Below are positions 15,727-60,701 of a stretch of 64,000 nt of DNA, piece after piece (positions within the stretch are counted from its first letter, which is position 1; each line of letters starts with the position of its first letter). The DNA lies in assembly GCF_044324875.1 (NCBI RefSeq), contig NZ_CP172185.1. The stretch is one strand, 5' to 3'. The stretch is from Escherichia coli (lineage in GTDB: Bacteria > Pseudomonadota > Gammaproteobacteria > Enterobacterales > Enterobacteriaceae). Position numbers and translations under genes: made by a program. Under the pieces are notes generated by a model that worked only from the letters and a program-made list of their open reading frames with translations, searched no databases and was not told the DNA's origin.

Positions 15727-15757
15727 TAAAAAACCCGCTTTTTGAAGCGGGTTTTTT
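15727..15757. terminator. bidirectional rho-independent terminator between lipA and tatE
   Basis: AAAAAACCCGC-TTTTTGAA-GCGGGTTTTTT: hairpin flanked by A-run and T-run, usable on both strands. Confidence 0.8.
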
Positions 15758-53157: not shown

Positions 53158-53969
53158 CCGAATCAGTAGCCCGTTTGCGTGGCGAACAGTTAACCCTCGG
53201 ATATGGCAAATATACCGTTGCGGAAAATCTGACTGTAGAAATTCCTGATGGTCACTTCACGGCAATTATCGGGCCAAATGGCTGCGGTAAATCCACGTTA
53301 TTGCGTACCTTAAGCCGCCTGATGACGCCTGCTCACGGGCATGTCTGGCTGGATGGTGAGCACATTCAACATTACGCCAGTAAAGAGGTTGCACGCCGGA
53401 TTGGCCTGTTGGCGCAAAACGCCACCACGCCGGGAGATATCACCGTGCAGGAGCTGGTGGCGCGTGGGCGTTACCCGCATCAACCGCTGTTTACCCGCTG
53501 GCGCAAAGAAGATGAAGAAGCGGTAACGAAAGCGATGCAGGCCACGGGAATCACCCATCTGGCAGATCAAAGCGTGGATACCCTTTCTGGCGGACAACGC
53601 CAGCGAGCGTGGATCGCGATGGTGCTGGCCCAGGAAACGGCAATTATGCTGCTCGATGAACCAACGACCTGGCTGGATATCAGTCATCAGATTGATCTAC
53701 TGGAACTGCTAAGCGAACTGAACCGCGAGAAAGGCTATACCCTGGCGGCAGTGCTGCACGATCTTAATCAGGCCTGTCGTTACGCCAGCCATTTGATTGC
53801 ATTGCGGGAAGGGAAAATTGTTGCTCAGGGAGCGCCGAAGGAGATTGTCACTGCTGAATTGATCGAGCGCATTTATGGTCTGCGCTGCATGATTATTGAC
53901 GATCCGGTAGCCGGAACGCCGCTCGTGGTGCCGCTCGGACGAACGGCACCTTCAACTGCCAAGATTTAA
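53154..53969 (+). CDS. fepC: ferrienterobactin ABC transporter ATPase FepC
   Basis: ORF 53013..53969 trimmed to MTESVARLRG start (271 aa); Walker A GPNGCGKST, signature LSGGQRQR, Walker B LLDEP. Confidence 0.93.
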   Translation: MTESVARLRGEQLTLGYGKYTVAENLTVEIPDGHFTAIIGPNGCGKSTLLRTLSRLMTPAHGHVWLDGEHIQHYASKEVARRIGLLAQNATTPGDITVQELVARGRYPHQPLFTRWRKEDEEAVTKAMQATGITHLADQSVDTLSGGQRQRAWIAMVLAQETAIMLLDEPTTWLDISHQIDLLELLSELNREKGYTLAAVLHDLNQACRYASHLIALREGKIVAQGAPKEIVTAELIERIYGLRCMIIDDPVAGTPLVVPLGRTAPSTAKI

Positions 53970-55099
53970 ACTAAGTGCTCTTCCATCACGGCATCCTGTT
54001 TTCTGGATGCCATCGCATGGCGCAACAGCACGCCACCACAAGCCACCATCCCGCCGATCATCGCAGAAAGGATCACAATAATCGCCTTACCCGGACCGTC
54101 TTTTTTCACTGGCAATGACGGGCTTAACTGATATTTAAACGGCGTAAAATTCACATCGTTGATATTTGTTTTTGTTAGCTGCTCAACAAGATACTGACGA
54201 TTACGTAATTCACCGTTCAGTTCCGCAACGTCAGTAACCGCTTTTTCAATTTCCAGTTTGCGTTCAATACCGTCTGCGCCGAGAGAAATAGAGAAATCGG
54301 GGTCATCTTTAACGGCCTGACCATTACTGTAAACGGGCTTTTTAATTCCTGCCGCGTTAGCAATGTCGAGTGAATAATTGAGGCGCTGAATGTTTGCATC
54401 AAGTTGATTTTTCGTTTTAATGCGATCCTGAGCCAGTTTTTCTTTTTCAAACTGGGTTTTGATCTCCAGTTTATTACGGACGTTTTCTATCGACTCTTTC
54501 ACCACCAACGCAGAGATATAATCGATATACCCGCTCAAAACGGTCTGCGCCTCTTCGCTGGTTGGCGCGGTAAAACTTAGCGTCCAGGAGGTATACAGTG
54601 ACGGTTCATCTTTTTTCTTACTGGCATTGTCATCAACCGCTTTCATTTTTTCGCTCAATGCGACAATTGCGCGATGCAAATCCAGTTCGTCGATTTTCGC
54701 CTCTTTTAATTGGTCCATCACATAAGGTGTTGAGCGCAGGTACTCTTCCAGCAAGCTAACCGACTGAAACTTCTTGATAAACAGGTTAAATGCTTCTGTA
54801 CGATCAATTTTGATATCCAGATCCAGCACACGAAGCTTAGTGAATGTTTTCTCAAGCGCCTGCCACTGAACAGGTTCTGGAGGCGTGACAACCGCCGCGC
54901 TGGTCCATTTTTGCGACAGGATGAAAGAGATCAGTAAACCTGCGCAGGCAAACGCAAAAACGACCGCCATGACCGTTTTTTTGGCCCGCCATAAAACTCC
55001 AATTAGATTAAGTAAATCAATTTCATTATTACTGGGCGACGCCAGAGGATACTCAGGAAAATGAGCGTCACTTCCCTGTTTAATATTCAGTGATGACAT
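53966..55099 (-). CDS. fepE: polysaccharide co-polymerase (Wzz-like) FepE
   Basis: ORF trimmed to MSSLNIKQGS start (377 aa); N- and C-terminal TM segments flanking a coiled-coil periplasmic domain; 3' end overlaps fepC 3' end by 4 nt. Confidence 0.88.
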   Translation of the reverse strand: MSSLNIKQGSDAHFPEYPLASPSNNEIDLLNLIGVLWRAKKTVMAVVFAFACAGLLISFILSQKWTSAAVVTPPEPVQWQALEKTFTKLRVLDLDIKIDRTEAFNLFIKKFQSVSLLEEYLRSTPYVMDQLKEAKIDELDLHRAIVALSEKMKAVDDNASKKKDEPSLYTSWTLSFTAPTSEEAQTVLSGYIDYISALVVKESIENVRNKLEIKTQFEKEKLAQDRIKTKNQLDANIQRLNYSLDIANAAGIKKPVYSNGQAVKDDPDFSISLGADGIERKLEIEKAVTDVAELNGELRNRQYLVEQLTKTNINDVNFTPFKYQLSPSLPVKKDGPGKAIIVILSAMIGGMVACGGVLLRHAMASRKQDAVMEEHLV

Positions 55100-55265
55100 G
55101 GGGTATAACCTGAAAATGAGTCCAATAGGGGAAATCTCCACGGCGCTCACTTTACCAGTTGGTGAGAATTATCCGAAGCTGAAGTTTGTAAATTCCTTCC
55201 ACTGAATGCAACATTCACTCTATTTAAGAGAAATATCCACCAAACTTATAAATTAAATAAATGAT

Positions 55266-55298
55266 AAACCCATAATTATTTCCTGTAATTATGGGTTT
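55266..55298 (-). other. 13-bp-stem hairpin in the entF-fepE spacer (candidate intra-operon attenuator)
   Basis: AAACCCATAATTA-TTTCCTG-TAATTATGGGTTT, perfect inverted repeat downstream of the entF stop. Confidence 0.4.
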
Positions 55299-55313
55299 AT
55301 AGATAATATTAAT

Positions 55314-58300
55314 TTACCTGTTTAGCGTAGCGCGAATAATCGGCCCAATTTTTTCAAACGCCCCTGGAGAGATAATATCCACATGCGCACAATCCTGACG
55401 ATAGATATCCAGCTCCGCAATCCACGGCGACCAGGCGCGTTCGGGATTCATACCTTCCTGAAGCGTGCGTTCAGCAACAAACAGCGTCGCTTTACCGTCA
55501 AACGGTACACTATGAGCAGTCGTCAGCAGGCGCACAGCATCAGCGTAGTTGCCTTCAATGGTGGTAAACAACTCCGTTGAAGTACTTCCCTGCTGTGCCG
55601 CCAGGAAGGCCTCGCGCTCGCGGTTAATCTCCGCCAGCACTTCCGGGTCCAGGCCATTAGCCTCTTTTTCCTGCCAGTTTTGCGTTTCTGGCGGCCAGGT
55701 ATCCAGCAAGCCAAGAAATGCCACCTGTTCGCCACGGGCACGCAGCCGCGCCGCAATACCCTGCGCCAGCGTACCGCCCAGCGAATAACCCAGCAGGTAA
55801 TAAGGGCCGTGCGGTTGATGCTCAAGTAACGTTGCCAGATGCGCTTCGCAGACTTCATCCAGATTTGCCGCGGTCTGCATGGGGCCATTGGGGCGCGGCG
55901 ACTGAATGCCGATAATCGACCATTGTGGATCGAGATAACGCGAGAGCACGCTGAACTGCCAGGCAAAACCGGACGCAGGATGGAAACAAAACAGCGTCGG
56001 GCCATTACCTTCACGCAACGGCAGAATGGTTTCGAATCCCATGCGCCGGGAGCTGTCCTCTTCACCATCAATAATCGTTGCCAGTTTGGCGACGGTTGAT
56101 GCGACCATCACCTGCCCCGGCGTCACCTGACGGGCAAAGTGTCGACTTAACTGCGCTGCCAGTTTCATTGCCAGTAGCGAATGACCGCCAAGCGCGAAGA
56201 AATCAGCATCGGCATCCTGCACGTCACAACCCAGCAACGACGAGAATGCCGCGGCGATAATCGTTTCACTGCCCGCTTTCGGCGCACGCCCCGGCGCTTG
56301 TGCCTTCAGTTCAGGCAACGGTAAGGCTTTGCGATCCAGCTTGCCGTTGGCGCTAAGCGGCAACTGCGGAAGTTGCAGCAGAACCACGGGCACCATATGC
56401 GGTGGCAATGTTTCGCGCAACTGCGCCTGCAATGCAGTGGTATCCAGCGGCAGGCCTGATTGCGACACAAGATACCCAACCAACTGACGCGCATCGCCTC
56501 CCGTTGCGGCAGCCTGGTTAATGACGCAGGCGTGGGTAACGGCCTGTTCGACATCCGGCAGTGCCTGCATCACGCGATCGATTTCGCCCAGTTCGATACG
56601 CTGCCCGCGAATTTTTAGCTGATCGTCACTGCGCCCGAGGTACTCCACCGCGCCGTTATCCAGCCAGCGGGCAACGTCTCCGGTACGGTACATCCGTTCA
56701 CCTGGGGCAAAAGGATCGGCAATAAAGCGGCTGGCTGTCAGATCGGGTCGTCCAAGATACCCCTGCGCCAGTTGAATACCGGTGAGATAGAGATCTCCCG
56801 CCACACCTGGCGGCACCGGATGCATCATCGCATCAAGAATACGCAGGCCCGTATTCCACACCGGATAACCAATCGGCACACTGCTGCCGCGCACCTGTGC
56901 CAGTTCCTCGCCAAAAGCCGGATACCAGCTGACATCTACCGCCGCTTCCGTCGGGCCATATAGATTATGCAACGGCACGCTGGTTAACTGTTGCCATTCG
57001 CGGCATAAATCAGCGGGTAAGGCCTCACCACTACAGAAAACCTGTTTCAACGTCGCGCAATTCTGGCGAGCGGTTTGCGGAGTCAGCGATGCAACAAAAG
57101 CTGCCAGCATCGACGGCACAAAGTGCGTGGTCGTTACGCCATATTCGGCAAAGAATTGCTGCATAGCGAGCGGGTCGCGGTGCGCTTCCGGTTCAGCCAT
57201 CACCAGTTTAGCCCCGGCAATAAACGGCCAGAAAAACTCCCACACCGAGACATCAAAACTGCACGGCGTTTTTTGGGCAACGACATCTTCGCCTGTAAGC
57301 GGGTAGTGGTTTTGCATCCAAAGCAGGCGGTTAACGATAGCCGTCTGCCCGACCATTACCCCTTTCGGCCTGCCGGTGGAGCCAGAGGTAAAGATGATAT
57401 AAGCCGTGTGGTGCGGTTGTGAAAGTTTCAGCGGCGCACTGCCCTGCGGTGTAAGCGGGGCGTTATAGCAAAGGCTGGTTAAATCTGGAACATCGGCAAA
57501 GCGCGGCAGTTGATCGTCGGTGGTGATTAACAGCGACGGACGCGCATCTTCCAGCATCATTTTCAGGCGATCGTCCGGATAGCCGGTATCCAGCGGTAAC
57601 CAGGCCGCACCAGCCTCAACAATTGCATGTAGCGCCAGAGTCAAAAAGACCGAGCGCGGTAGCGCCACCGCCACGCTGTCGCCTGGTTTAACGCCGCGCT
57701 CACGCAGCAGATTCGCCAGCGCCACCACCTGCTCGCGCATTTCCCGATAGCTAAACTGGTAACTCGCATCAACCAGCGCCGGAGCATGCGGTGTTTTTGC
57801 CGCCTGTTCCGCCACCAGCGCGCTCAGCGTGGTTTCTGGAATCTCAACCTGAGTGGCGTTGATCTGCGCCAGCTGCACATATTCACCTGGCAGCATAATA
57901 TCGACATCGCCGCACAACAGCGCCGGATCCGCGGCGAACTGGGCAATCAGCATTTTCAGGCGTTCAGCGTGTTGAATTAACGTTGGCTCATCGTAACGCT
58001 GTTTATTGGCGAGGATCTCAATACTCAAATCACCGTGTTCATCCGGGAACAGTGCCAGTTCAAGGTCATTAACCGGACCGGTTGCCAGGGTATGGGTTTG
58101 CGCCTGAACACCAGGAATATCCAGTTGGTAATCAAATACCTTGATATTGAGTACCGGACCAAACAGCGGTTCATCACCTGCCGCTCGCCCGCTGTCACGG
58201 ACAATTTGTTCGGCATCGTAACGTTGATGACGACGCATTTTTTTCAGTTGTGCTGCCAGTCGGGTTGCCAGTTGCGGCAGCGTTTCTTGCGCCTCAATAT

Positions 58301-60615: not shown

Positions 60616-60666
60616 ACCATAACCCCATGTTTACTGTGCAATTTTTCATTGATTGCAGAAATATAT

Positions 60667-60701
60667 TGATAATATTATTGATAACTATTTGCATTTGCAA
60701 T
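60667..60701. promoter_or_regulatory. Fur box(es) in the divergent fes/fepA control region
   Basis: GATAATATTATTGATAACTATTTGCATTTGCAAT, overlapping iron-box hexamer repeats. Confidence 0.65.

Follow-up and report, generated by a model that had tools for sequence, protein, structure and literature searches.

A conserved hairpin between entF and fepE is probably a leaky intrinsic terminator of the fes-ybdZ-entF transcript in Escherichia coli

The fes, ybdZ and entF genes lie tightly packed on the minus strand of the 64-kb stretch of Escherichia coli DNA analysed here (the window) and are followed, after a gap, by wzz(fepE), gene identities and order being those that RefSeq gives for an E. coli genome of 99.4% identity. 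This gap is the only sizeable one in the fes-ybdZ-entF-fepE gene string. Its borders are the TAA stop codon of entF (55314..55316, minus strand), which ends fes-ybdZ-entF and was placed using the ORF list, the sequence and the RefSeq annotation of near-identical genomes, and the ATG start codon of fepE (wzz-fepE; 55097..55099, minus strand), placed by a translation check and RefSeq annotation. The length of 214 nt (55100-55313) and the A/T-rich composition that a first-pass annotation had given for the spacer between the two codons were both borne out, the G+C content being 33.2% in the spacer as compared with 51.9% for the window. The only small ORFs in the spacer are unsupported frames of 20-35 aa, which are located downstream of the hairpin described below and overlap the fepE promoter. 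At its other end, fepE (minus strand) is convergent with fepC (plus strand), the two genes overlapping by 4 nt at 53966-53969, which leaves no room for a terminator between them.

The spacer contains an RNA hairpin (55264..55300, minus strand) that is supported by fold energy as well as by conservation and covariation across 26 loci from three genera, and that lies, as had been noted at first pass, just downstream of the entF stop, 13 nt past the TAA on the minus (coding) strand. It had been described as a perfect 13-bp hairpin, AAACCCATAATTA-TTTCCTG-TAATTATGGGTTT, at 55266..55298; the position holds, whereas the stem is longer and comprises 15 perfect pairs, with arms at 55264-55278 and 55286-55300 enclosing a 7-nt loop at 55279-55285. 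The transcript reads 5'-AUAAACCCAUAAUUA (55300-55286), the loop CAGGAAA (55285-55279) and UAAUUAUGGGUUUAU-3' (55278-55264), followed by CAUUUAUUUAAUUU. Only 3/15 pairs are G-C; these are located near the base of the stem, beside the U tract and within the core 55269-55295, and are the best conserved, with C:G in 25/26 and 26/26 of the loci. The hairpin is the longest perfect close inverted repeat in the 64-kb window. In 20 dinucleotide shuffles of the 64 kb, no stem of at least 13 perfect pairs was obtained, the best having 8-11, and 3000 shuffles of the spacer gave a longest perfect stem of 12, which was reached once. The 56-nt sense-strand RNA folds at -15.8 kcal/mol (z = -4.97), and 0/200 shuffles were as good. 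The hairpin is therefore far beyond chance expectation.

A 350-nt stretch around the hairpin matches 5410/5426 complete E. coli genomes, the best match being 99.4% identical. Dispersed repeats of the REP, ERIC or MITE type were excluded, as the hairpin is single-copy, with a median of one place per E. coli genome; where a second place was found, a match of the palindrome to its own opposite strand could account for it. RefSeq annotates no feature at the hairpin, and a literature search on a fepE/entF terminator and on the literal hairpin sequence found no paper in which it is described. It is very likely, we assume, to be listed by genome-wide terminator predictors. Elsewhere in the window, another perfect 13-bp hairpin, AAAAAACCCGCTT-N4-AAGCGGGTTTTTT (15728-15757), is flanked by A and T runs on both sides and has the look of a classical bidirectional terminator.

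A U-rich tract, UUUAUCAUUUAUUUAAUUU (55250..55268, minus strand; tail CATTTATTTA), starts right after the GGG of the stem and is mirrored by an A-rich stretch upstream of the core, the first five bases of the tract also being able to pair with the upstream AUAAA. Among the 26 loci, T accounts for 71% of the 14 positions after the G-C core, falling at position 15, as compared with a spacer average of 36%. The tract of the window allele is marginal, with U at 5/8 positions beyond the full stem and the sequence UUUAUCAUU following the G-C core. Canonical U tracts were found in Salmonella (GGGUUUUUUAUU), B2-type E. coli (GGUUUUUUUAUU) and Citrobacter (GGGUUUUUGUUU) and also in several other E. coli alleles (GGGUUUUUU(U)AUUU, i.e. 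UUUUUU(U)AUUU), with 6-7 consecutive U in Salmonella, in B2-type E. coli and in these other alleles; interrupted tracts are those of the window (GGGUUUAUCAUUU) and of K-12/B (GGGUUAAUCAUUU). The U tract (55248-55268) is polymorphic within E. coli, reading UUAAUCAU in K-12/B, UUUAUCAU in the window and UUUUUU(U)AU in other lineages, and terminator strength may differ between E. coli strains. As judged by textbook criteria, the element is a weak candidate terminator, given its A+U-rich stem, its 7-nt loop and the 5/8 U tract of the window allele. The site was flagged by a generic terminator scan, which is uninformative by itself because the scan yields about as many hits in the sequence (28) as in shuffled sequence (24; 20 kb). 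An A+U-rich outer helix, GUAAAUUAAU / AUUUAAUUUAU (55317-55308 with 55258-55248), which includes the entF stop, was also predicted around the hairpin. It is predicted in E. coli alleles only and is absent in other genera; on these grounds, and given the low complexity of the sequence, it was not included in the element, and it may have arisen by chance from such sequence.

The conservation of the hairpin was assessed in regions downstream of entF taken from other E. coli alleles, from a one-genome-per-species scan with the EntF C-terminus, and from contigs encoding the Salmonella, E. marmotae and B2-type FepE, which were retrieved by a FepE protein search. The same hairpin follows entF in 26 loci of Escherichia, Salmonella and Citrobacter, and is present in every fepE-followed locus except one, which carries a decayed copy. 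The loci cover Escherichia spp., E. albertii, E. marmotae, the divergent B2-type allele, Salmonella enterica and ~14 Citrobacter species. A hairpin core, CCAUAA...UUAUGG, is common to the fepE-followed loci and is more conserved in sequence than pairing alone requires, and the remainder of the spacer can scarcely be aligned across genera. Across the 26 sequences, 92.8% of stem cells are paired. In the 19 sequences that were aligned in register, standard pairs amount to 92.6%, as compared with 38-53% after a shift of the 3' partner by 1-3 columns, and compensatory double changes occur at 7/15 pairs; the covariation score in this set is 0.405 against 0.19 in shuffles, with 0/500 shuffles reaching the observed value. 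Relative to the window, the K-12 stem carries a double change from A:U to U:A, one C:G pair became G:C or U:A in other Escherichia species, and the Salmonella hairpin has two additional G·U pairs. The orthologous hairpins fold at -11.5 to -19.9 kcal/mol. The non-Watson-Crick cells of the 26 sequences, read on the sense strand, include 40 G·U as against 4 A·C, an A·C on this strand being a G·U on the opposite one. For the Citrobacter hairpins, fold energies of -13 to -20 kcal/mol were obtained on the sense strand, as against only -5 to -15 kcal/mol for the antisense sequence. Because G·U outnumber A·C, and in view of the compensatory changes, the structure appears to have been selected in entF-sense RNA and not in DNA. 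Loci that lack fepE (C. sedlakii, Tenebrionibacter and Tatumella) carry a hairpin of a different, G+C-rich kind downstream of entF; entF is thus, as a rule, followed by a hairpin.

Variation in the junction was observed both within E. coli and in Citrobacter. About 540/5426 E. coli genomes (e.g. Nissle 1917) carry a divergent spacer allele, which is ~50% identical and measures 246 nt, not 214; this Nissle-type allele has a different fepE 5' end and keeps the hairpin, the RcsB box and the -10, and this suggests an old event in which the fepE module was replaced by another allele. In Citrobacter sp. MGH106 (L018:4212-4340), a ~125-nt insertion lies between the entF stop and the old hairpin (L018:4345-4400), which has lost both conserved C:G pairs (now C·A and C·U). 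The insertion carries a strong hairpin of its own, CCCCAGTCACTTA...TAAGTGACTGGGG, and is ~75% identical to an unannotated intergenic stretch in 606 E. coli genomes. We take it to resemble an ERIC/IRU repeat.

About 125 nt downstream of the hairpin, the three genera share a conserved promoter block. When the 125 nt preceding the fepE ATG were aligned for 22 loci, one block stood out as strongly conserved, consisting of TTTCGGATAATTCTNA, 4-5 nt and CTGnTAnAnT. In the window this corresponds to an RcsB box, TCGGATAATTCTCA (55163..55176, minus strand), which overlaps the -35 region, matches the Salmonella sequence TCGGATAATTCTGA and is conserved in 22/22 aligned loci, and to the extended -10 of the fepE promoter, TGgTAAAGT (55149..55157, minus strand), whose CTGnTAnAnT is likewise conserved in 22/22 loci. 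The RcsB box of Salmonella fepE has been demonstrated by EMSA and DNase I protection and spans -36 to -22 of a start site taken from SalCom (PMC7913699). The box TCGGATAATTCTNA and the TGnTAnAnT of this RcsB-controlled promoter of Salmonella Typhimurium are kept in the window, with a distance from the box to the fepE ATG of 77 nt as compared with 79 nt in Salmonella (PMC7913699). That work concerned the promoter, not the hairpin, and both RcsB binding and the start site in the window are predicted by homology; placed from the Salmonella site, the fepE start site would lie near 55140, with a 5' UTR of ~41 nt. A further box, AATTCCGAATAT, is common to Citrobacter and Salmonella and is absent in E. 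coli.

About 20 nt past the hairpin, a string match identified TTTGGTGGATATT (55232..55244, minus strand) as the counterpart of an H-NS footprint, TTTGCTGGTTATT, reported in EHEC (PMC8669466), and H-NS may also bind here in the window allele. A fepE promoter-reporter fusion was active and H-NS-regulated in EHEC (PMC8669466), and a fepE promoter fusion was active in E. coli and repressed by SdiA (PMC11619404). Together, the published reporters, the mapped Salmonella start site with its RcsB box, and the box and extended -10 in the window answer in the affirmative the earlier question of a separate fepE promoter. As this promoter lies downstream, the hairpin is outside the fepE primary transcript and at the 3' end of the entF message. 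The best match to a Fur box in the spacer is 11/19, which is typical of shuffled sequence, so that iron control could reach fepE only via read-through. A promoter-like pair inside the hairpin itself (ATTACA-17-TATCAT) was rejected, since its hexamers are not conserved in other alleles, such hits are no commoner than in shuffles, and the Salmonella start is far downstream. Upstream of fes, the divergent fepA-fes promoters probably have their Fur-box region at an imperfect 24-nt overlapping palindrome, TGCAGAAATATATTGATAATATTA / TAATATTATTGATAACTATTTGCA (60654-60693).

The expression of these genes has been reported in several transcriptomic studies. In an ExPEC strain exposed to iron-poor serum, fes, ybdZ and entF were up and fepE was not, the latter responding separately to complement (PMC4145685). 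In MG1655 under a mild pressure of 1 MPa, which induced the iron regulon, entF rose 13.7-fold, fes 5.8-fold and ybdZ 3.5-fold, and fepE did not appear in the list of induced genes (PMC6049941). Microaerobic Fur repression was accompanied by log2 changes of -5.04 for fes, -4.96 for ybdZ, -3.10 for entF and -1.69 for fepE (PMC8910356), values that fit some read-through into fepE. Following database convention, fes-ybdZ-entF-fepE is quoted in the literature as one operon (e.g. PMC4145685), which implies read-through. Entries for entF/fepE are absent from the supplements of an E. coli Term-seq study (PMC7815308) and of a full-length transcript SMRT-Cappable-seq study (PMC6131387), probably because the genes are repressed in iron-replete media. 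Taken together, the published transcriptomes fit a junction at which entF and fepE are mostly, but not fully, uncoupled, and the uncoupling of fepE from the iron-regulated transcript suggested at first pass is, as a partial effect, in line with these expression data (PMC4145685, PMC6049941, PMC8910356).

The hairpin is most likely a Rho-independent (intrinsic) terminator of the iron- and Fur-controlled fes-ybdZ-entF transcript. It has the features expected of such an element, namely a sense-strand position after entF, a stable stem-loop, a U run and selection on the transcribed strand, and the terminator reading put forward at first pass is strengthened by the conservation, the compensatory changes, the sense-only wobbles and the U-rich tract across three genera. 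The support for termination and for uncoupling is comparative or comes from the literature; from what was observed, namely the structure and the strand it belongs to, its conservation, the U tract and the promoter block, we infer that transcripts end here and how efficiently they do so. It is proposed that RNA polymerase moves beyond the entF stop codon and on through the stem-loop sequence, whose RNA would fold while the weak rU:dA hybrid of the U-rich tract sits in the enzyme, and that many complexes, in the fuller form of the proposal most polymerases, would release the transcript at the hairpin. The 3'-terminal hairpin would also shield the fes-ybdZ-entF mRNA from 3' exonucleases. The fepE gene would then be expressed mainly from its own RcsB-, H-NS- and SdiA-responsive promoter. 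Because the U tract is interrupted in the window (UUUAUCAU) and in K-12 (UUAAUCAU), termination is probably incomplete in both, making the window allele a probably leaky terminator, and read-through in alleles with interrupted U tracts would probably supply an iron-dependent minor share of fepE mRNA.

Leaky terminators occur inside other gene strings, textbook examples being the rpsU-dnaG terminator and the rplL-rpoB attenuator. In common with the intrinsic terminators of Enterobacteriaceae, the entF hairpin combines a sense-RNA stem-loop and a U tract just after a stop codon, has G-C pairs at the base of the stem beside the U tract and an A-rich upstream stretch mirroring that tract, is kept by compensatory changes, and precedes a gene with its own promoter. 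It differs from them in its 15-bp, A+U-rich stem with only three G-C pairs, in a loop of 7 nt in place of the usual 3-5, and in its interrupted U tract, and termination is here a prediction. It shares with the dispersed REP/BIME and ERIC/IRU palindromes an intergenic location at a gene's 3' end, a stable fold and a potential to stabilise the mRNA upstream; in E. coli genomes, however, it is present as a single copy, and it does not resemble those repeats.

A stem-loop selected in the sense RNA, as observed here, would also be needed if the hairpin were a 3'-to-5' exonuclease barrier or a processing site acting, without termination, in a longer fes-ybdZ-entF-fepE transcript, so that the entF and fepE segments would acquire different stabilities and transcription would end elsewhere. 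The A+U-rich stem and the imperfect U tract of the window allele are compatible with such a role, as are the four-gene operon quoted in the literature and the joint decrease of fepE and entF under Fur repression (log2 -1.69 vs -3.10, PMC8910356). However, the conserved U-rich tract (71% T over 14 positions) would be needless for a barrier and is a hallmark of intrinsic termination, many alleles have U6-U7, and fepE has its own conserved promoter and fails to follow entF in two transcriptomes (PMC4145685, PMC6049941), and a barrier without termination is considered unlikely. The palindrome could instead act at the DNA level, as an operator for a dimeric transcription factor or as an H-NS nucleation site controlling the fepE promoter. 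Its half-sites CCATAA/TTATGG are nearly invariant across three genera and constantly 13 bp apart (12 bp in one locus), the region is A+T-rich, the H-NS footprint of EHEC is ~20 nt away (PMC8669466), and SdiA represses a fepE reporter through an unmapped site (PMC11619404). The compensatory changes, e.g. from C:G to G:C, U:A or A:U at one pair, nevertheless speak against this, because operators select particular bases and not the complementarity of the arms, and the ratio of 40 G·U to 4 A·C makes sense only for a sense-strand RNA. Moreover, the hairpin is located ~125-160 nt upstream of the predicted fepE start site, the reported H-NS footprint differs from it in sequence and no Fur-box match exceeds chance, all of which make a DNA operator or nucleation site very improbable.

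Termination might alternatively be conditional, with read-through set by a factor or by an alternative RNA fold, in which case the hairpin would be an attenuator coupling O-antigen length to iron starvation. The partial co-variation of fepE with entF (PMC8910356), the differences in U-tract strength among E. coli alleles and the A+U-rich outer helix predicted across the entF stop in E. coli alleles could be read in this way. An Rfam search of 54000-56500 with E up to 10, however, returned no match other than chance eukaryotic snoRNA/miRNA hits, the outer helix is confined to E. coli alleles, and there is no leader ORF upstream of the hairpin. The stretch from the stop codon to the hairpin, in addition, is conserved neither in sequence nor in length (13 nt in E. 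coli, ~35 in Salmonella and 25-45 in Citrobacter). The probability of such a switch is regarded as very low.

Read as an intrinsic terminator, the hairpin is an ordinary example at an internal operon boundary that involves no new mechanism, and only the length and A+U richness of its stem, the 7-nt loop and the conservation of its sequence set it apart. It is conceivable, although rather doubtful, that the terminator is deliberately leaky, with a leakiness that depends on the lineage (UUAAUCAU in K-12/B, UUUAUCAU in the window, and U6-U7 in B2-type E. coli, some EHEC-like E. coli and Salmonella). If so, iron starvation would raise FepE and very long O-antigen chains in some lineages only, and the hairpin would be an evolvable dial linking nutritional immunity to surface architecture. 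Termination by the hairpin, as proposed here, would refine the textbook operon, in that the iron-regulated message would mostly stop after entF and fepE would be a unit of its own, controlled by RcsB, H-NS and SdiA, with minor read-through at most. In practical terms, this would put right the usual view that one Fur-controlled operon comprises all of fes-ybdZ-entF-fepE, and it bears on the reading of iron-regulon transcriptomes and on how the length of O-antigen chains is controlled in pathogens.
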